From a virus (Duplodnaviria; Heunggongvirae; Uroviricota; Caudoviricetes): 40,587 nucleotides of DNA. The notes beneath the pieces were generated by a model. It was not told the origin of the DNA. It searched no databases and saw only the letters and a list, made by a program, of their open reading frames with translations. The translations under genes were made by a program, and so were the position numbers. The stretch lies in IMG/VR virus record IMGVR_UViG_2563366988_000007, positions 1 to 40,587 of that record. The stretch is one strand, 5' to 3'. Shown piece by piece: positions 3,368 through 40,587 of this stretch (position 1 is its first letter; each line of letters begins with the position of its first letter).

Positions 3368-3395
3368 ACCCGCAAAATATTGCGGGCTTTTTTTT
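3368..3395 (+). terminator. Intrinsic terminator oriented on + strand (stem cccgcaa/ttgcggg plus T8)
   Basis: acccgcaaaatattgcgggctttttttt; T-tract only on + side. Confidence 0.45.
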
Positions 3396-6300
3396 AACGT
3401 TCTTCCAGAGACTGAATCCGCTCTTTTATCTTATCCATTTCTCTGCGCTGCCATGCTGCCTCGATATAGAATAAGAGATCAGGTCTGACCCCCCATCTAG
3501 ATCCTGCTGGCGTTATTTCAACGCGCTCAATGATGTCTTCTATTACCATCACTGGATTATCATCCTCATCAACAATGATGCTCCCGTCATTATCAGTCAG
3601 CGGCATTTCCCTTTGGCCAGTAATGACGTCATCATATACTGCGGGATAATCGTCATAGCAAAGAAAGGCATAGCGGCATGTTGTGCTTTCTTCTTCCATG
3701 AGTCCGTGAGAAATAAGAACATCACGAAGTTGCTGCGCGATTACACCATGATGTATCCTCGCCCCTTCTTCCCCCTTTATAGCGACAGCGTTCAGCCATT
3801 TATAAGCGATATACCTGACGTCACCCCAGGCATCCAGCAATGCTTCGTCAGGAGAGACCGGCTCTGTCTTTAATGTTCCGTCACTGGTAACCACAGGATT
3901 GGAGCCAAGATAAACTGTCGAGAACCTGTTTCCCGGACCACCAAGAGCATTTACATTATCAAGATAAGGTTTAACATCTCCGTTCTCAAAAAGATGTTCG
4001 AGTGCGTTATATACCGCGCGACGTGGAGTACTGCTTCCGGAACCATGCAACGTTATCATTGCACCATCTGCTGAAGACGTTGTTTCACCGCCGCTAACGA
4101 TTAATCTCTGAGCGGTAACATCATCAGACGGTACTTTCTTCGCAATAATGGCGTAATTACCCTCAAGTTTGACTTCCGCGCGAACTTGTCCTGATGTACC
4201 TGCATGGACAGTCAGTGACTGGACGGCAACATCATCTGTGAAATCAACGGGTACAGGAACCGTCCTCACGCCTGACGTCGACATAAAAGTAGGAAGCGTT
4301 CTGTTAGGAGTGGCTCCGTAGACAAAATCCCTTGAAACAAATTCTTCCTGTTTAATTTTCACCCTGAAACAATACAAATCAGCCGGGTGACCATCGTGAA
4401 CATAAGGATATTTTCTGTTGTTATCCCCTATGCTCCATGGGTTTAGAAAGTCTTCCCCACCGAAAATGTAGTACAGCCAGTTGTCTTTGATACAAACTGA
4501 ACCAACACCAACCGCAGAGTTAACTATTCCGCCCTGATAAATCTGATCAGTAACATTAACCCACTCTACATTATCCAGACTCCACTCATTGACGTTAACT
4601 CTGGTCATAAATGTTCTTGGATAATTTCCTGCATAACGGTTATCAGGTTCTCCTCCTTCCCACTCACCAAATGCGCGCTCACTGCCAAAAATAATCAGCT
4701 CATCGCCAACTTTGGCAAAAGGAAGGTTTGAGTGATGAACATTATTTGGGAAGCGAAGAGAATTCCATGATGTACCTAAATCAGAGCTTCTGTGCAATGA
4801 ACTACCGGGTTGAGTACTTAATGTCCCCCTGGTCGTCAGATACAGAATGCCATCATAATATTTTACACATGGCTCAGATGCATTCGCCTCATATTCTACA
4901 GGTATGCGTCTGCGAACAAAGCTACCAGGAGAACCGAAAGCATCAGAGAAATAGAGTATCCCAAGCTCGCGTGGACCAATATCACCATTATGGTAGCCAA
5001 CAGCAAAACTGTTATCGCTAATCGTCGCAAAACTGTGAATCTCAGTAACAGGAGTGCTTCCGTCAACAAAAGAAGGAATAGTTCCAAGACTGGTTTTTCT
5101 CCATGGTGACGAGTGAAATGATGTACCAAAACTCCAGTATCTACCCTCGTTATTCTGATCCACATCCTGGGTATTTTGCGTCGTAACTGTAAAAGTATTT
5201 TTATCAATAACAGTAGTCACCGTCATATTCCCGGTAACACCTGTAACACCAGAGTTTGAGAAGTTGACAAAATCACCAGCAAATAATCCGTGATCAGTAA
5301 TGCGAATATAAGCGACTTGCTGATTTGCTGCTTTCGTTATACCACCATAAACGCGAAGGCTGCGACTCATTGGGCGATCCCACAACTCTGCAACCTGCAG
5401 TTTATTTCCGCTCACGGTCCGCGTCTCAATTACAGCAAAAAGGCGATTTCTGACAACCCCCATACTCATGCAGTGATAGTTAACTGTGGGATAGTTTTCA
5501 TGTAAATCTGTAAGCCATTCCGGCGTTGTCCAGGTCTTCCCGTCATCTCCTGAGCGAACCCATGCAACATGGAGGTTATTTACACCATGGCGGTCTCCAG
5601 CCATAAAAGGCGCATAGATGACATTGTCATATACAAACGTTTTATCCTGCGTCCAGGCGTTGTACCACGGTGTATCTGTAATTTTAAATAACTCTCCCTG
5701 GATAAAATCTTCAGAAGCATAAAAAAGAGGCTGGCCCGGTATTCTCTCAAATAAAAAACGAGCATTTTTAAATCGACTGACATCCGGAAGAGTTGATACT
5801 TTAAAAGTAAGCCCTAATCCGTCAATTTTATAACCTGGAGATGAGGCTTCAAGGCACGCGCTTATTGCAGTGGAATCGTCATTTATACCATCACCAACAG
5901 CTCCAAAATCTTTGGGGCTAATAGCATCACGCATTTTATCCTGGAACGTTCGGTACACAGCCCCAGAACCATACTGAATAAACCAACCAAAACCACCAAC
6001 AACCCCGGCGATTGCAGCATCGACATAATTACGCATTGAGCGATTATTTACAGCGTCCTGCTCAAATGATGGATCTGCAAGGTTAGAAATTTTGTTTTGC
6101 TTTGCATCGTAATATTTTGCAAGCAAAGATGGTTTCATCAATGCACGTCTGAACCACCCAAAACATTGCTGGATCAGCATCGTCAGGTAGTCAAAGGCAT
6201 CTTCATGCACTTCGGGGAAAAATTTTCCCTGATTGCGAAGGTCTGTCTCCTGCACTACATCAAGCACACGATCTATCGTAATTCGCCATCCAGTAGCAAG

Positions 6301-6513
6301 CGGAGACGGAAGAACCACAGAACCGCCACTATAAGTGCCCGCCCCAGTTACCGTATAACCGGTATCCAGAACCAATTCTGTTACGTTCCCGTTCAGGTCA
6401 GACACCTGAACAACCAGGTCTGATTTTCTGAAAATTCGAAAAGTATACGGAAACGATGTCGTAACGCCGTTACCGGTGTATTCGTTGTGGTCAACTTCGG
6501 TTGAGACCGTCAT
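3394..6513 (-). CDS. Tailspike/depolymerase: epsilon15-type N-terminal anchor, beta-helix-like central domain, C-terminal intramolecular chaperone (peptidase S74-like)
   Basis: N-term MTVSTEVDHNEYTGNGVTTSFPY; FGAVGDGINDDSTAI motif; Asp-box-like SGDDGKTW and SSDLGTSW; C-terminal SDGTLK cleavage-type motif. Confidence 0.8.
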   Translation of the reverse strand: MTVSTEVDHNEYTGNGVTTSFPYTFRIFRKSDLVVQVSDLNGNVTELVLDTGYTVTGAGTYSGGSVVLPSPLATGWRITIDRVLDVVQETDLRNQGKFFPEVHEDAFDYLTMLIQQCFGWFRRALMKPSLLAKYYDAKQNKISNLADPSFEQDAVNNRSMRNYVDAAIAGVVGGFGWFIQYGSGAVYRTFQDKMRDAISPKDFGAVGDGINDDSTAISACLEASSPGYKIDGLGLTFKVSTLPDVSRFKNARFLFERIPGQPLFYASEDFIQGELFKITDTPWYNAWTQDKTFVYDNVIYAPFMAGDRHGVNNLHVAWVRSGDDGKTWTTPEWLTDLHENYPTVNYHCMSMGVVRNRLFAVIETRTVSGNKLQVAELWDRPMSRSLRVYGGITKAANQQVAYIRITDHGLFAGDFVNFSNSGVTGVTGNMTVTTVIDKNTFTVTTQNTQDVDQNNEGRYWSFGTSFHSSPWRKTSLGTIPSFVDGSTPVTEIHSFATISDNSFAVGYHNGDIGPRELGILYFSDAFGSPGSFVRRRIPVEYEANASEPCVKYYDGILYLTTRGTLSTQPGSSLHRSSDLGTSWNSLRFPNNVHHSNLPFAKVGDELIIFGSERAFGEWEGGEPDNRYAGNYPRTFMTRVNVNEWSLDNVEWVNVTDQIYQGGIVNSAVGVGSVCIKDNWLYYIFGGEDFLNPWSIGDNNRKYPYVHDGHPADLYCFRVKIKQEEFVSRDFVYGATPNRTLPTFMSTSGVRTVPVPVDFTDDVAVQSLTVHAGTSGQVRAEVKLEGNYAIIAKKVPSDDVTAQRLIVSGGETTSSADGAMITLHGSGSSTPRRAVYNALEHLFENGDVKPYLDNVNALGGPGNRFSTVYLGSNPVVTSDGTLKTEPVSPDEALLDAWGDVRYIAYKWLNAVAIKGEEGARIHHGVIAQQLRDVLISHGLMEEESTTCRYAFLCYDDYPAVYDDVITGQREMPLTDNDGSIIVDEDDNPVMVIEDIIERVEITPAGSRWGVRPDLLFYIEAAWQRREMDKIKERIQSLEER

Positions 6514-34903: not shown

Positions 34904-35488
34904 ATGAAAAGTATCCAGGACGTCCGCAGGCAAAATCTCAACGACTTGATCGACCGTGAATTCAATGGTGTTCAGACGCGGATGGCAGAAAAACTTGGAA
35001 CTCAGGCAAATCTGGTAAACCGCTGGGCTCTTGGCAAGAAGGTTATCGGCGACCAGGTTGCGCGAAAAATTGAAGCTGCCGCCAATAAACCCCGTAACTG
35101 GCTTGATATCGATCGCTCGCTTTCTCAGGAAGGTTTTCAGCCTGTCGGCCCAAGCGACATTGGTCAGCTGGCGGCTCACAACCTGGAACGCTGGATGAGC
35201 GAAAGCCGCGACCTTTCAACACAGGGAAAACTTCACCGCGCATCCGGCGTCGCCCAGGTGACAATCAGCCGCCTGTTAAACAATGAGGTCAGCGTTTCCA
35301 TTTCCACCCTGGAGAATGTTGCATCCGCATTCGGGCGTCACGGCTATGAATTACTGATTCACCCGCACGACCCTGCGACTATCAACTATGACCGCTCGCG
35401 CTACGCATTGTTACCCGAAACAGAGAAGGCAAAGATCGAAAGTTACATTGAATTTGTCATCAGCCAGAACGAAAAAAACAAACAATAA
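34904..35488 (+). CDS. Immunity repressor, tandem HTH (XRE-type) domains, no LexA-like S24 autocleavage domain
   Basis: Two HTH-like segments (QTRMAEKLGTQANLVNRW and ASGVAQVTISRLLNNE); no GDSM/Ser-Lys peptidase motif. Confidence 0.7.
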   Translation: MKSIQDVRRQNLNDLIDREFNGVQTRMAEKLGTQANLVNRWALGKKVIGDQVARKIEAAANKPRNWLDIDRSLSQEGFQPVGPSDIGQLAAHNLERWMSESRDLSTQGKLHRASGVAQVTISRLLNNEVSVSISTLENVASAFGRHGYELLIHPHDPATINYDRSRYALLPETEKAKIESYIEFVISQNEKNKQ

Positions 35489-35508: not shown

Positions 35509-35532
35509 AAGCCGCCTCATGGCGGCTTTTTT
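35509..35532 (+). terminator. Intrinsic terminator after repressor gene (aagccgcc-tcat-ggcggctt plus T6)
   Basis: Read directly. Confidence 0.55.
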
Positions 35533-35545
35533 ATTGCCAGCAAGA

Positions 35546-35622
35546 TTACCTTATGGGTAATTTTTTTAACTCATATCTATTGACATCAAACCAGATACGC
35601 ATAATCATTACCTCAACGGTAA
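35546..35622 (+). promoter_or_regulatory. Early promoter with two operator palindromes (35546-35560 ttaccttatgggtaa; 35608-35622 ttacctcaacggtaa) and -35 TTGACA at 35579
   Basis: Perfect palindromes flanking TTGACA; precedes early plus-strand operon. Confidence 0.5.
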
Positions 35623-35641: not shown

Positions 35642-35794
35642 ATGCAGTGGAAAATCATCAACGGTTGGTACTGCGTTACTGCATGCGGATTCATGAGCTG
35701 GAAGTTCCGCACCTTACAGGAAGGCATTAAGTGGGCTTTCGTCAGCAAAGAAGCTCGCGATGTGGCCAACGATAACGAGATATGGGAGGGCTGA
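35642..35794 (+). CDS. Small protein (50 aa), first gene of early plus-strand operon; not in ORF track
   Basis: GAGG SD 8 nt upstream; translation MQWKIINGWYCVTACGFMSWKFRTLQEGIKWAFVSKEARDVANDNEIWEG. Confidence 0.35.
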   Translation: MQWKIINGWYCVTACGFMSWKFRTLQEGIKWAFVSKEARDVANDNEIWEG

Positions 35795-35796
35795 TA

Positions 35797-36096
35797 ATGA
35801 ACGTTAATCAGCAGAAAAATCTTCAAAAAATCATGCAGGCATTCGACAAGGACTACCACCTGTCAGAACAGCTATATGACCGACAAGTTGAACTGATTGA
35901 GAGCATCCGACTTCATCAACTGTCATCAACTTTCGACGTTGTAACAGGCAAAGGCGTTCGTCAGGAAGTACTGGAGGCTGCTAAAGACAGCCCTGAGTTC
36001 GAAGAACTGATGGATGCCTATCGGCGAGAGGCAATGGCAATTATCGCCCGCTGGGATCTGGCGGATCAGCTTGATGGACAGAAGGACGCGGCATGA
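35797..36096 (+). CDS. Hypothetical protein upstream of exonuclease (possible recombination accessory/nuclease inhibitor)
   Basis: Start at MNVNQQ with GGGAGGG SD; acidic helical 99 aa. Confidence 0.45.
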   Translation: MNVNQQKNLQKIMQAFDKDYHLSEQLYDRQVELIESIRLHQLSSTFDVVTGKGVRQEVLEAAKDSPEFEELMDAYRREAMAIIARWDLADQLDGQKDAA

Positions 36097-36914
36097 AACC
36101 GGGAATTTATTTCGGCATCAGCAACGAAGACTACCACGCAGGTGACGGCGTGAGTAAGTCGCAACTGGACATGGTTGCCAAGAATCCGGCGCTTCTTAAA
36201 TGGGTTCAGGCAGCACCAGAAGACGAAGAGAAAAAGTCTGCATTGGATATGGGAACCGCATTGCACTGCCTGCTTCTGGAACCTGGAGAATTCGACAAAC
36301 GCTTCATCGTGTCACCGAAATTCGATCGTCGGACAAAACAAGGTAAAGCTGACGAAGAAGCATTTCTTCGTGATGTGGCGGATATGGGTATTACGGTACT
36401 TGATGTCGAGCAGTGGCGAAAACTTGAGCTCATGCGTGATAGCGCAATGGCTCATCCGGCGGCACGCTGGATGTTGGAAGCACCTGGTTACTGCGAAGCA
36501 TCAATGTACTGGAACGATGAAGAGACGGGTGAGTTGTGCCGAATTCGTCCAGACAAATGGCTGAACGAGCACAACGTGATCGTCGACGTGAAAAAGGTTG
36601 CAGATATGGACCGTTTTGCACGCCACATCGAGGAATTCCGCTACCACGTGCAGGACGCAATGTACCGCGAAGGCGCAACGAGGGTTACTGGTCAACCGCA
36701 TGGTTTTTTCTTTCTTGCCGTGAGCGAAAGCATTGATTGTGGTCGGTATCCGGTACGCGTGTTCGAGTTGGATGCGCCGGATGTCGATGCCGGGCACGCT
36801 CTGTTCCGCCGGGATCTGAATACCTATCACGAATGCCGCATAAATGATGAATGGGGCGGCGTGGAAATTATTAAACGCCCTGACTGGGCACGTAAACAGG
36901 ATATGTATGTATGA
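36093..36914 (+). CDS. RecE-like 5-prime to 3-prime exonuclease (PD-(D/E)XK nuclease domain only)
   Basis: GIYFGISNEDYHAG and downstream D...E.K-type motifs resembling RecE C-terminal domain; paired with annealing protein. Confidence 0.6.
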   Translation: MKPGIYFGISNEDYHAGDGVSKSQLDMVAKNPALLKWVQAAPEDEEKKSALDMGTALHCLLLEPGEFDKRFIVSPKFDRRTKQGKADEEAFLRDVADMGITVLDVEQWRKLELMRDSAMAHPAARWMLEAPGYCEASMYWNDEETGELCRIRPDKWLNEHNVIVDVKKVADMDRFARHIEEFRYHVQDAMYREGATRVTGQPHGFFFLAVSESIDCGRYPVRVFELDAPDVDAGHALFRRDLNTYHECRINDEWGGVEIIKRPDWARKQDMYV

Positions 36915-37792
36915 GCAATGATATCGCAATCACATCACAACCAGGCGCAACTGTAGGCACTGCTGCGGCAATCTTCAGCCCCGAGGGCATGAATCAACTG
37001 GTGCGTTTCGCGGAGTTGATGTCACAAAGCAAAGCGACTGTACCGAAACATCTTGAAGGCAAACCTGCCGATTGCCTGGCGGTGACTATGCAGGCGGCAC
37101 AGTGGGGAATGAACCCTTTCGCCGTGGCGCAGAAAACGCATGTGGTAAACGGAACGTTAGGCTACGAAGCACAGTTGGTAAACGCGGTCGTATCCTCTTC
37201 CAGCCTGCTGGCGACACGCCTGAATTATCGCTGGAGCGGTGACTGGTCGAATGTTAACGGCAAAACAGATAAATCACCGAATCTGACGGTAACTGTGTCA
37301 GCAGTTCTTAAAGGTGAAACAGAACCCCGTGAGCTTACCATCAGTATGGCGCAAGCCGGAGTGCGTAACTCTCCATTGTGGGAACAGGATCCGCGCCAGC
37401 AGCTTGCCTATCTTTGCACGAAACGATGGGCTCGCCTGCACGCTCCTGATGTGCTTCTCGGTGTTTACACCCCTGACGAATTACAGGAAACGGCACCGCG
37501 CGTTGAGCGAGACATTACTCCGCAAACAACTACTGCTGCGGGAATGAACAGTCTGATCAACGCTAAACCAGTGAAAAAGCCTGATGAGCAAACTCGTAAA
37601 GCGGATAGCCGTGATCCAGAAGAAATGCTGATGGCCTTTACCAGCGCAGCGATGAATTACAGCACTGTCTCCGAACTGGATAAGGCTTACAAATACATTG
37701 CACAAAAACTTTCAGATGATGACGAACTGCTGGCAAAAGCCACCGACGTTTACAGCGTTCGTCGGGAAGAATTAAACGAAACATCTATGTAA
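36911..37792 (+). CDS. Single-strand annealing protein (RecT-like)
   Basis: Position after exonuclease; motif QWGMNPF...GTLGYEAQL resembles RecT family. Confidence 0.55.
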   Translation: MSNDIAITSQPGATVGTAAAIFSPEGMNQLVRFAELMSQSKATVPKHLEGKPADCLAVTMQAAQWGMNPFAVAQKTHVVNGTLGYEAQLVNAVVSSSSLLATRLNYRWSGDWSNVNGKTDKSPNLTVTVSAVLKGETEPRELTISMAQAGVRNSPLWEQDPRQQLAYLCTKRWARLHAPDVLLGVYTPDELQETAPRVERDITPQTTTAAGMNSLINAKPVKKPDEQTRKADSRDPEEMLMAFTSAAMNYSTVSELDKAYKYIAQKLSDDDELLAKATDVYSVRREELNETSM

Positions 37793-37841
37793 CCACCACC
37801 GCGGCGCCACGCGCGCCGCACTGCAACCAAGAGAGGTATTT

Positions 37842-38090
37842 ATGAAAGGTGCATTAGGTAAGAAGGAACTCCTGGCGGTGGTGCCACTGTCATGGAGCAC
37901 TATCGACCGTATGGAGCGCGCAGGGGAATTTCCTAAACGCTGGTATATCACCGATAAACGCTGCGCATGGAACCGTGACGAAGTTGAGCGTTGGCTTGAT
38001 GAACGTCAGGCAGCAAGCCCGGCAGAGTTCCAGGGTAAAAAACCTCCTGTTCAGCAACGTGTATATCGTCCCGTGAGCAACGCTGCATGA
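37842..38090 (+). CDS. AlpA/Xis-type DNA-binding protein (excisionase candidate)
   Basis: 82 aa, AlpA-like motif near integrase. Confidence 0.55.
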   Translation: MKGALGKKELLAVVPLSWSTIDRMERAGEFPKRWYITDKRCAWNRDEVERWLDERQAASPAEFQGKKPPVQQRVYRPVSNAA

Positions 38091-38203
38091 GTGCGCTGCT
38101 AAGGCACTGGATCAAATGGTCAGGATGGTACTTATTCCTGGCCTCTGTTTCAGCATGGCTTTATCTGCTGGCATTAATTTTCAGAGAGGGTTGGATTAAG
38201 TGA
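38087..38203 (+). CDS. Small single-TM protein (38 aa), translationally coupled on both sides; not in ORF track
   Basis: ATGA overlap with xis stop and overlap with next GTG start; translation MSALLRHWIKWSGWYLFLASVSAWLYLLALIFREGWIK. Confidence 0.3.
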   Translation: MSALLRHWIKWSGWYLFLASVSAWLYLLALIFREGWIK

Positions 38204-38499
38204 GAAAGTTAAGCCGACTTGAAAAATACCACATGAATAAGGTTTCAATGCGCAGTCCGTCAAAGATTGTCGCCGTTACTCCTGCGGCGATAGAGATCGA
38301 AAAACGCGCGATTGAAAGAGAGAAAAAAGGGCAGTTCCGCATTGCCGCTCACCTTTGGCTTCAGTGTATGGATGTTGCTTCTGGTGATGTTGAACGTGCA
38401 AGGATCGCGGTTCGCAGGGACCAATGTATCACAAAAGGTAACGGCCTTCGCCGTGGCGACTATAGCGGCATAGGATGTTGTGGGGTGGTTTATGACTAA
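38200..38499 (+). CDS. PerC-like small regulator (tentative), GTG start
   Basis: Motif AHLWLQCMDVASGDVERARIAVRRDQC resembles PerC family as recalled. Confidence 0.4.
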   Translation: MRKLSRLEKYHMNKVSMRSPSKIVAVTPAAIEIEKRAIEREKKGQFRIAAHLWLQCMDVASGDVERARIAVRRDQCITKGNGLRRGDYSGIGCCGVVYD

Positions 38500-39142
38500 G
38501 AAATACACACTAATCTATGCAGATCCACCCTGGGTATACCGGGACAAAGCCGCAGATGGTAATCGCGGTGCCGGTTTTAAATATCCAGTTATGAGTGTGC
38601 TGGATATCTGCCGCCTTCCTGTGTGGGATTTGACCGCTGAAAACTGTCTGTTGGCCATGTGGTGGGTGCCAACACAACCACTCGAAGCACTAAAAGTTGT
38701 TGAAGCCTGGGGATTTCGTCTGATGACGATGAAGGGCTTCACGTGGATAAAATGTGGTAGTCGACAACCAGATAAACTGGTTATGGGTATGGGACACATG
38801 ACTCGCGCCAATAGTGAAGATTGCCTGTTTGCGGTAAAGGGAAAACTACCTACGCGCATTAATGCAGGGATCGTTCAGTCATTTACCGCACCGCGGCTTG
38901 AGCATTCAAGAAAGCCAGATATCGTTCGTGAAAAACTTGTGCAATTATTAGGCGATGTTTCTCGCATTGAACTGTTCGCCCGCCAGACGTCTCATGGCTT
39001 CGATGTTTGGGGTAATCAGTGCGAAGACCCGGCAGTGCAACTACACCCTGGATACGCGTTGGATATTGGCGGATTAACAAATGCATTCAGCAATGCTCCG
39101 CTGTCACCAACAGACATCCAGGGGCGGGAGCGTGCTGCATGA
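38480..39142 (+). CDS. DNA N6-adenine methyltransferase, MT-A70 family (orphan)
   Basis: YADPPW catalytic motif; no adjacent restriction gene. Confidence 0.8.
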   Translation: MGWFMTKKYTLIYADPPWVYRDKAADGNRGAGFKYPVMSVLDICRLPVWDLTAENCLLAMWWVPTQPLEALKVVEAWGFRLMTMKGFTWIKCGSRQPDKLVMGMGHMTRANSEDCLFAVKGKLPTRINAGIVQSFTAPRLEHSRKPDIVREKLVQLLGDVSRIELFARQTSHGFDVWGNQCEDPAVQLHPGYALDIGGLTNAFSNAPLSPTDIQGRERAA

Positions 39143-39333
39143 ACAGGGCATCACCAGCAGATTTAAGAAAATGCCTTGAAACTGCAAACATGCTTGCACA
39201 CAGCGGGATCAGGTTTGTTCCAATTCCCGCTGTCACTGATGCTGAATTTGCAACACTGTCAGCAATATTCGAAAACAAAATTGAATCACTGGCAGCAGAA
39301 GCAGAGATGGAAGAAAATCAGCAGAACTATTAA
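39139..39333 (+). CDS. Small hypothetical protein (64 aa)
   Basis: ATGA overlap with methylase stop; inner start of ORF 39019-39333. Confidence 0.4.
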   Translation: MNRASPADLRKCLETANMLAHSGIRFVPIPAVTDAEFATLSAIFENKIESLAAEAEMEENQQNY

Positions 39334-39336
39334 ACG

Positions 39337-40587
39337 TTATTCCCCCGCCATCCACTTCTCAAACTTCGACGGGGAGAACGGAATCAGATCCGTATGCTCC
39401 CCGTCAATCCATGAATCAATCATATCGGCCCACTGCTGCAACATGTAGGCGCGCTGTCTGGCGTATTCCGCTTTGTTATATACGGCGCGCACACCTTTCT
39501 GCTCATGTGCCAGAGCCTTTTCAATCCAGTCTGAAGGATAACCAGCCTCATGCAACAACGTACTGGCTGTACGGCGCATATCGTGTACGGTGAAGCCCTG
39601 AATATGCTCACCATCTTCATTTATTATTTTCACCGTTCTGTCGATCAGAGAGTTCAGCGCGGCATTAGATAATGGCTTCCGGAAATTGTAACGACCAGGA
39701 ACCAGATATTCACTTCCACCAGCGCACATCTGCAACCCAACCAATATATCCTGTGCCTGTTTAGGCAGGTAAATAACGTGCGCCCGGCTTCCCTTCATGC
39801 GGTCTGAAGGAATTGTCCATGTCCATTTTTTAAAATCTATTTCATCCCACGTTGCATTGGTGAATTCGCCTTTACGAACCATAGTGATAAGCACCAGCTT
39901 TAAAGCCATTTTCATAGTGCCCATAGCACCAATGGCATCCAGCGTGCGGAAGAACAGGCCAATTTCTTCTGGTGTCAGTGTTCGCTCTCGTGGTTTAAAT
40001 ATGGCGATAGACGAAGGTTTAATGTCAGCCGCAGGATTAAACAAACCATGACCACGGTCATTGGCGTGACGGTATACGCTGCTGATGATCTCCCTAGCCT
40101 GTACTGCTGTTGCCCGACCACCGCGTTCGACAATCCGGTCACACAAATCACGAACCATCGATGTGGTAATTTCAGCCATCATTTTGTTACCAAGAACAGG
40201 AAGTATGTCACGGTCGATCACCGCCTGCTTCATTGCGCGGGTACTGTCAGCCAGGATGACGTGTTTCATATAACTGTCGGTATGTACCGCAAACGTCTCG
40301 GCACCACGAATCTTTTTGATACCGTCACGTTTAGCCGCAGCCGGTGACTGGCCTGCTTTAAGCAGCTTCTTTGCAGCAATCAGTTCTTCTCGCGCTTCTG
40401 CCAGGCTGATACCGTCACGCCCATACTGCCCGATTACCAGTGTTTCGCGGCGACCGTTGATACGGTAGTCATAGCGAAACGAGACCGTGCCTGACGTAAG
40501 CACAGCTACATACAGCCCGTCACGATCGGAGACCTTGTACAGTTTGTCCTGCGGCTTGAGGTTTTTTAATTTTGTATCGGTAAGCAC
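39337..40587 (-). CDS. int: Tyrosine integrase (P4-like arm-binding N-terminus); GTG start at window edge, N-terminus may extend beyond window
   Basis: N-term LTDTKLKNLKP; catalytic region HDMRRTASTLLHEAGY...LAHEQKGVRAVYN. Confidence 0.85.
   Translation of the reverse strand: MLTDTKLKNLKPQDKLYKVSDRDGLYVAVLTSGTVSFRYDYRINGRRETLVIGQYGRDGISLAEAREELIAAKKLLKAGQSPAAAKRDGIKKIRGAETFAVHTDSYMKHVILADSTRAMKQAVIDRDILPVLGNKMMAEITTSMVRDLCDRIVERGGRATAVQAREIISSVYRHANDRGHGLFNPAADIKPSSIAIFKPRERTLTPEEIGLFFRTLDAIGAMGTMKMALKLVLITMVRKGEFTNATWDEIDFKKWTWTIPSDRMKGSRAHVIYLPKQAQDILVGLQMCAGGSEYLVPGRYNFRKPLSNAALNSLIDRTVKIINEDGEHIQGFTVHDMRRTASTLLHEAGYPSDWIEKALAHEQKGVRAVYNKAEYARQRAYMLQQWADMIDSWIDGEHTDLIPFSPSKFEKWMAGE

Follow-up and report, generated by a model that had tools for sequence, protein, structure and literature searches.

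Positions 35642 to 39333 of a 40,587-nucleotide (nt) stretch of tailed-phage DNA (IMG/VR record IMGVR_UViG_2563366988_000007, positions 1 to 40,587; hereafter the window) hold a block of nine genes that very probably makes up the early-left ("PL-type") operon of a temperate podovirus of the epsilon15/phiV10 kind (Uetakevirus), present as a prophage at the yfgI-guaA site. An earlier note on this DNA had framed the same genes as an accessory block adjoining the integrase, a description that had to be abandoned in favor of the phage's own early-left operon. Assignment to the Uetakevirus operon is based on features read from the sequence, namely synteny from the repressor to the integrase, an operator-flanked promoter, and the att core, all of which were found. 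The operon genes, including two small open reading frames (ORFs), are already annotated in phiV10 or epsilon15, and nothing in the block is new. The result is a clean negative, in which a common, annotated prophage operon is recognized and no discovery claim is needed.

Layout, Control, and Insertion Site of the Operon

Nine ORFs lie on the plus strand, and all of their coordinates were verified (Table 1). They encode, in order, a 50-residue protein, a 99-residue protein, a RecE-type exonuclease, RecT, an AlpA-type protein, a 38-residue membrane peptide, a PerC-family regulator, an MT-A70 methyltransferase, and a homologue of lambda Orf63. The eight junctions between them measure +2, -4, -4, +49, -4, -4, -8, and -4 nt; all except one are overlaps or a 2-nt spacing. 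Each ORF, the 50- and 38-codon ones included, matches an existing PHROG family over its full length. The same operon, with gene-for-gene order and both small ORFs annotated, is found in phiV10 (p39-p32; NC_007804) and epsilon15 (gp37-gp28; NC_004775), which also share the repressor and terminator/promoter arrangement upstream and the convergent P4-type integrase. Gene order is kept as well in Enterobacter phage Tyrion, Salmonella phage PAT1, and Klebsiella phages.

Table 1. Positions of the operon genes, control elements, and flanking features in the window, with the matches or sequence properties that identify them (aa, amino acids)
Feature	Position	Strand	Length	Identifying match or property
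Operator-like sites TTACC-N5-GGTAA	6618, 6998, 8050, 25228, 28373, 28391, 32448, 32510, 34449, 34786, 34834, 35546, 35608			palindrome scan
Predicted intrinsic terminator	35509-35536	+		8-bp stem with 6 G-C pairs, then T-run; after repressor gene 34904-35488
Putative repressor operators TTACC-N5-GGTAA (two, perfect)	35546-35560, 35608-35622	+		bracket the promoter; second overlaps the -10 region
Predicted PL-like, sigma-70-like promoter	35580-35608	+		TTGACA 35580-35585, 17-nt spacer, AATCAT 35603-35608; 10/12 positions matched
First operon gene	35642-35794	+	50 aa	phrog_898 E 1.9e-38; epsilon15 gp37/phiV10 p39; annotated by PGAP
99-aa protein gene	35797-36096	+	99 aa	phrog_856 E 1.1e-54; epsilon15 gp36/phiV10 p38; stop overlaps exonuclease start by 4 nt
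Stand-alone RecE-type 5'-3' exonuclease	36093-36914	+	273 aa	PF12684 (DUF3799, PD-(D/E)XK) E 1.1e-21
RecT single-strand annealing protein	36911-37792	+	293 aa	PF03837 E 8e-32, 110.8 bits vs cut-off 24; phrog_561 E 1.3e-145
GC-rich hairpin GCGGCGC-5-GCGCCGC	37801-37819	+		no T-run; read from sequence; sole sizeable gap of the operon (recT/excisionase interval)
AlpA-family helix-turn-helix protein	37842-38090	+	82 aa	PF05930 24.2 bits vs cut-off 21; phrog_66 "excisionase and transcriptional regulator" E 2e-16
Single-pass membrane peptide	38087-38203	+	38 aa	phrog_17484 E 2.5e-26; epsilon15 gp32/phiV10 p35 "membrane protein"
PerC-family small regulator	38200-38499	+	99 aa	GTG start; PF06069 30.1 bits vs cut-off 22.6; phrog_868 positions 1-99/99
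Orphan MT-A70 N6-adenine methyltransferase	38492-39142	+	216 aa	PF05063 E 4.2e-22; start overlaps PerC stop by 8 nt
Lambda Orf63 homologue (DUF1382), last operon gene	39139-39333	+	64 aa	PF07131 E 7.4e-30, 103.3 bits vs cut-off 27, positions 1-60/60
P4-type tyrosine integrase	39337-40587	-		Arm-DNA-bind_3, Phage_int_M, and Phage_integrase domains

The elements upstream of the first gene carry the argument for a repressor-controlled unit. A terminator directly after the repressor gene is predicted to insulate the operon from repressor-gene transcription, and phiV10 carries an annotated terminator at the equivalent position. The promoter that follows is bracketed by two operators; with at most one mismatch allowed, the window contains 13 copies of the operator palindrome, compared to 0.54 expected, and the RefSeq record of epsilon15 holds curated repressor-binding sites at positions equivalent to both operators. 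Promoters and terminators were sought by simple consensus scans, which found no further promoter-like site on the plus strand within the block. The operon would be silent in the lysogen because its sole promoter-like site is bracketed by operators and the terminator isolates it from the repressor gene. In phage ZX5 (97.6% identical), overexpression of the repressor blocks lytic growth and an antirepressor promotes lytic development (PMC9782041). Operator-like sites were also observed far outside the immunity region, including some close to BRO/antirepressor-like genes and others within the late region; the repressor may therefore govern a wide regulon.

The insertion site was read from the left side of the window, which begins in yfgH/yfgI. 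The att core ATTGAGTGGGAATGATT, published for phiV10, epsilon15, and ZX5 (PMC9782041), is present at 1163-1179 on the minus strand, just past yfgI, and marks the left prophage end; prophage sequence then continues as far as the integrase. The window stops at the integrase start, with the guaA-side junction outside it. Several E. coli chromosomes match the block at 100% identity; in the one such genome with annotation examined it adjoins guaA beside the integrase. The prophage is inserted between yfgI and guaA in E. coli. Equating the window with E. coli BCE049 was rejected: the block is 100% identical there, but the remainder of the window differs, and the window itself starts at yfgH, not ppx. 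Altogether, 566 of 5426 complete E. coli genomes carry the block, which is 95-98% identical to phiV10 (95.5%), TL-2011b, vB_EcoP_ZX5, phiv142-3, and others.

Based on these data, we infer that the block is held off by the repressor in the lysogen and that infection or antirepressor-mediated induction would switch it on as a single transcription unit. The exonuclease and RecT would then serve phage recombination, while the AlpA-family protein would steer the convergent P4-type integrase toward excision. The membrane peptide would be translated by termination-reinitiation between the excisionase and PerC genes. N6-methylation of adenines in replicating phage DNA by the methyltransferase would allow progeny to survive restriction in the next host, and the Orf63 homologue would bias development to lysis, as in lambda.

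Lysogenic Conversion as an Alternative

The earlier note leaned toward a different role, in which lysogens produce the PerC-family regulator and the methyltransferase as a lysogenic-conversion module that reprograms host genes through transcriptional activation and a new epigenetic mark. PerC/Pch proteins from other E. coli prophages switch on host virulence genes, with target promoters such as that of ler in the locus of enterocyte effacement (LEE), and the block is situated at the integrase end, a frequent site of moron genes. Prophages of the phiV10/epsilon15 family also alter host phenotypes (PMC7724020). However, the phenotypes of phiv142-3 were mapped to orf6 and orf10 (PMC7724020), which are located elsewhere, and a connection of these phenotypes to the block was therefore rejected; lysogeny by ZX5 did not measurably affect its host (PMC9782041). 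The two genes overlap their upstream neighbors by 4-8 nt and no plus-strand promoter-like site precedes them within the block, which argues that their expression depends on the operator-controlled promoter. A conversion module is quite unlikely on these grounds, and the operator-bracketed promoter similarly makes an epigenetic regulator of the lysogen, one of the two roles that the earlier note had considered for the methyltransferase, improbable.

Several observations weigh against the proposed early-left operon and its regulation. A promoter scan of this simple kind might overlook a weak promoter within the block from which PerC and the methyltransferase could be made in lysogens, and operator occupancy is deduced from the sequence and from how a relative is annotated. 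The match of the PerC-family protein spans positions 5-50 of the 90 positions of PF06069, or half of the profile. In the phiv142-3 lysogen in serum, the RecE-like and RecT genes were upregulated only modestly, which fits partial induction or leaky expression. Finally, the anti-restriction role of the methyltransferase is argued by analogy alone. The literature on phiV10, on MT-A70 proteins of prophages and bacteriophages, and on Stx2 methylomes yielded no characterized close homologue whose recognition sequence has been established.

The Two Small ORFs and the PerC Start

Because 97 ORFs of at least 30 codons occur in 7.6 kb, the presence of a short ORF is by itself uninformative, and conservation decides. 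In tblastn searches, the 38-codon ORF was recovered with all of its codons in 35 phage records (identity down to 66%) and the 50-codon ORF at full length in 36, the lower limit of amino-acid identity for the two being 66-70%. Both are kept across phages of E. coli, Salmonella, Enterobacter, and Klebsiella. Ratios of nonsynonymous to synonymous change (pN/pS) were determined per reading frame from eight diverged copies of the 38-codon ORF and seven of the 50-codon ORF. The annotated frames gave 0.27 and 0.19, respectively, compared to 1.40 and 1.32 in the other frames of the former and 1.82 and 1.29 in those of the latter; the sequences are few and related and the alignments short, but the frame contrast is large and agrees with that of the AlpA control gene (0.22 compared to 1.53 and 1.93). 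Judged by codon-level conservation, both small ORFs, which the earlier note had described as well placed for expression, are genuine genes under purifying selection.

The 38-residue product has one hydrophobic span (residues 14-32; Kyte-Doolittle 19-residue mean, 1.92), consistent with the single transmembrane segment that had been proposed for it. The start of its ORF overlaps the AlpA stop as ATGA here and as ATGA or GTGA in every relative examined; at the other end, its stop and the PerC start are joined in a GTGA, where most relatives have ATGA. The predicted translational coupling to AlpA upstream and PerC downstream is in line with the earlier note, and the ORF has no good Shine-Dalgarno sequence of its own. 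By comparison, a GAGG Shine-Dalgarno sequence is found 9 nt upstream of the 50-codon ORF.

An alternative interpretation would deny both ORFs the status of genes, with the 38-codon ORF an out-of-frame by-product of a PerC extended at its N terminus and the 50-codon ORF a leader. A PerC protein of 122-124 residues starting inside the 38-codon ORF is indeed annotated in four phage records (PAT1, VB_ST_E15, and Klebsiella phages), and the 38-codon ORF, with its poor Shine-Dalgarno context, is not called by the Prokaryotic Genome Annotation Pipeline (PGAP). Yet a TAA at 38197-38199 stands in the PerC frame directly 5' of the GTG at 38200, both in the window and in phiV10, and the stretch varies mostly synonymously in the 38-codon frame and mostly nonsynonymously in the PerC frame. 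Moreover, in phage BUCT554 the sequence has drifted, yet a short hydrophobic ORF persists at the same position. Together with the Shine-Dalgarno sequence and low pN/pS of the 50-codon ORF, these features render the alternative highly improbable, and the two ORFs are treated here as genes.

PGAP omits the membrane peptide in the E. coli genome annotation examined, despite the purifying selection acting on it, although the exact 38-residue sequence is already in NCBI (WMX18963.1). Exact sequences of both small ORFs, of the PerC-family protein, and of the methyltransferase are present in public databases. For the PerC-family gene, which was correctly placed beside the methyltransferase in the earlier note, the annotated starts disagree: PGAP uses the ATG at 38248 (83 residues), phiV10 uses 38233 (88 residues), and in epsilon15 and PHROG the start falls at the GTG position, 38200 (99 residues). 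Relatives have an ATG exactly at the position of 38200, and amino-acid conservation sets in at residues 3-4, which makes the GTG at 38200 the most likely true start. As annotated, the gene probably lacks its first 16 codons in RefSeq E. coli genomes and is overextended in several phage records.

The MT-A70 Methyltransferase

The methyltransferase fits PF05063 with 79.3 bits (cut-off, 23.9), its residues 9-180 covering profile positions 1-172 of 172. The DPPW motif at residues 11-14 (D11-P12-P13-W14) is invariant in eight Uetakevirus homologues and one homologue from a Shiga toxin (Stx) phage and aligns with the DPPW of Tetrahymena MTA1. The protein also matches MTase_II, the PADLOC model of Type II methyltransferases (E 2.1e-78), and its nearest solved relatives by sequence are MTA1 (E 6e-13) and METTL3 (E 3e-5). 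The ATG at 38492, rather than the GTG at 38480, is most likely the start. These matches agree with the enzyme class named in the earlier note, whose description of the enzyme as an orphan also holds within the prophage. No PADLOC restriction endonuclease model matched any of the 38 other prophage ORFs, where only methyltransferase hits were obtained, and no nuclease family is among the 25 listed of the 27 Pfam families found in the prophage; a related prophage has no annotated endonuclease either.

Homologues occur in 517 phage records, many of them from Vibrio phages. Those of Stx2a-converting phages are ~84% identical and likewise lie near the genome end. The gene itself is carried by ~10% of complete E. 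coli genomes.

The closest functional precedents are M.EcoGI/M.EcoGII (PMC5778455) and Hia5/Hin1523 (PMC3299994), which are also orphan, prophage-borne adenine methyltransferases that stay silent in lysogens and are believed to shield phage DNA against a large number of restriction enzymes. M.EcoGII and Hia5 were active when cloned, and in each case the natural lysogen lacked the corresponding methylation (PMC5778455, PMC3299994). As family relatives these enzymes were rejected: M.EcoGI/M.EcoGII are 349-residue, beta-class proteins and Hia5/Hin1523 alpha-class, Dam-related proteins, all with DPPY, whereas the phage protein is a 216-residue MT-A70 enzyme with DPPW. M.EcoGIX, which is plasmid-borne, was rejected as the same enzyme. 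By analogy with the precedents, methylation of replicating phage DNA, shielding progeny from restriction, is on balance the probable function, and of the roles entertained in the earlier note anti-restriction is still the most plausible. The same precedents bear on the proposed comparison of lysogen and cured-strain methylomes, in which the lack of a new methylated motif was to count as refutation. Because the methyltransferase is probably silent in lysogens, like M.EcoGI/M.EcoGII and Hin1523, such a comparison would be uninformative about activity; the lack of a new motif is the expected result and would not refute it.

A second possibility concerns the substrate. The enzyme could be a low-specificity adenine methylase, or one directed at single-stranded DNA or RNA, rather than a sequence-specific protector of double-stranded DNA, with the single strands produced by the exonuclease and annealase or with transcripts as substrates. 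In support, its 216 residues barely exceed the 172-position catalytic domain, leaving no recognizable separate target-recognition domain, and the eukaryotic relatives act on RNA or require partner subunits (PMC7544214). Tetrahymena MTA1/AMT1 and human METTL3 share the Pfam family, the DPPW motif, and an alignment over the whole catalytic domain, but they are heterodimers with accessory subunits that act on chromatin DNA or mRNA, whereas the phage protein is a bare domain with no known partner. Many databases label it "N6-adenosine-specific RNA methylase IME4", a label that has spread by annotation transfer alone. Among relatives of solved structure, the one with the best score is, in contrast, a ciliate enzyme that generates N6-methyladenine in DNA, and the PADLOC match is to a DNA methyltransferase model. 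Promiscuous prophage methyltransferases do exist (PMC5778455, PMC3299994), but M.EcoGII and Hia5 belong to the other families described above. Related phages carry unrelated genes in the interval that separates the methyltransferase from the recombination genes, which argues against a fixed linkage of the two. A relaxed or single-strand enzyme is accordingly unlikely, and protection of double-stranded phage DNA is retained as the preferred function.

Two unrelated alleles were observed in the loop at residues 86-98 (38747-38785), where 12-13 residues separate the invariant GFTW and GMGH motifs. The allele KCG(S/K)RQxDKLVM is found in E. coli and Stx-phage copies and HKTNKHKGNSAI in those of epsilon15, Klebsiella, and Enterobacter, so that the alleles track host genus. 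A double frameshift as the origin of the divergent loop was rejected, the alternative frames containing stops and giving no match. The loop could affect target choice or dimerization. More speculatively, the bare MT-A70 domain might act in an unusual manner, with relaxed or short-motif specificity set by the loop, methylation of single strands, or a homodimeric arrangement that makes it a minimal model of METTL3/MTA1. Separately, the excisionase, membrane peptide, and PerC genes, a conserved trio joined by ATGA overlaps, might be a hitherto unrecognized regulatory unit in which excision is tied to a signal at the membrane. We regard these proposals as long shots.

Recombination, Excision, and Orf63 Genes

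The RecE/RecT-like pair described in the earlier note is well supported by structural and profile matches. Residues 11-268 of the exonuclease align with the crystallized catalytic domain of Rac RecE (PDB 3H4R; E 1.6e-77), including the RPD...DVK catalytic motif. Against the NCBIfam RecE equivalog NF007259, the match is limited to positions 606-873 of 877, with a score of 309 that is below the cut-off of 1269. The protein does not have the architecture of full-length RecE (~866 residues) and is a homologue of its catalytic C-terminal domain. It thus resembles Rac RecE in aligning with residues ~606-866 and in having a RecT-family partner immediately downstream, and differs in lacking the ~600-residue N-terminal part. 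The two genes are co-oriented, and the RecT start overlaps the exonuclease stop by 4 nt (ATGA). In phiV10 the exonuclease and RecT are instead fused in one ORF. In epsilon15 the exonuclease/RecT cassette is a different one, an additional small gene precedes the methyltransferase, and the place of the Orf63 homologue is taken by a serotype-conversion gene. The recombination slot is mosaic more widely, as a different cassette was also observed in Klebsiella phage ST512-KPC3phi13.3 and in VB_ST_E15.

Two genes had been left without identity in the earlier note. The first encodes the 82-residue AlpA-type protein, whose counterpart in epsilon15, gp33, is annotated as an excisionase. A P4-type integrase with an Arm-DNA-bind_3 domain lies 1.2 kb downstream, and the AlpA-family protein is probably its excisionase partner. 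The second is the DUF1382 gene. Residues 2-62 of its product match PDB 8DSB (E 8.5e-13), the structure of lambda Orf63, which is encoded in the exo-xis region and acts in favor of lysis (PMC10869804). An ATGA overlap joins the gene to the methyltransferase stop, and the start at 39139 is most likely to be preferred over that at 39019.

The 99-residue protein has homologues of 44-53% identity at the same position in all relatives examined. Its ORF starts at 35797, as called by PGAP and preceded by a GGGAGGG Shine-Dalgarno sequence just upstream, and not at 35782. Neither it nor the 50-residue protein has a match in Pfam, NCBIfam, PADLOC, or PDB.

Comparison with the Lambda PL Operon

More generally, the block is the functional counterpart of the lambda PL operon. 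Both are repressor-controlled leftward early operons with an exonuclease/annealase pair, an excisionase, and small developmental proteins that include Orf63 or its homologue. In contrast to lambda, the recombination proteins are of the RecE and RecT type rather than Exo and Beta, the excisionase is of the AlpA type, and the int gene is convergent instead of co-transcribed. The methyltransferase and the PerC-family gene are additions relative to lambda, and no N or Gam homologue was recognized in the block.

Flanking and Other Features of the Prophage

The stop codons of the Orf63-like gene and the integrase gene are 3 nt apart (39333-39339), and neither a terminator nor a hairpin was found between them by inspection of the sequence and a repeat check. 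Because of this spacing and the lack of a terminator, read-through of the early operon would be antisense to int. At the position of the hairpin between recT and the excisionase gene, the epsilon15 record has an annotated stem-loop labeled "transcriptional pausing".

The PADLOC model typeIV_DinG weakly matched one ORF among the 38 others of the prophage (E 1.6e-05), probably a chance resemblance of a helicase- or terminase-like protein. The tailspike encoded at 3394-6513 on the minus strand is an endosialidase (End_beta_propel, E 3.7e-233), a feature of the present prophage in the comparison with phiV10 and epsilon15. Because of this tailspike, the prophage probably targets K1-capsulated E. 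coli, in contrast to the O157-specific phiV10.

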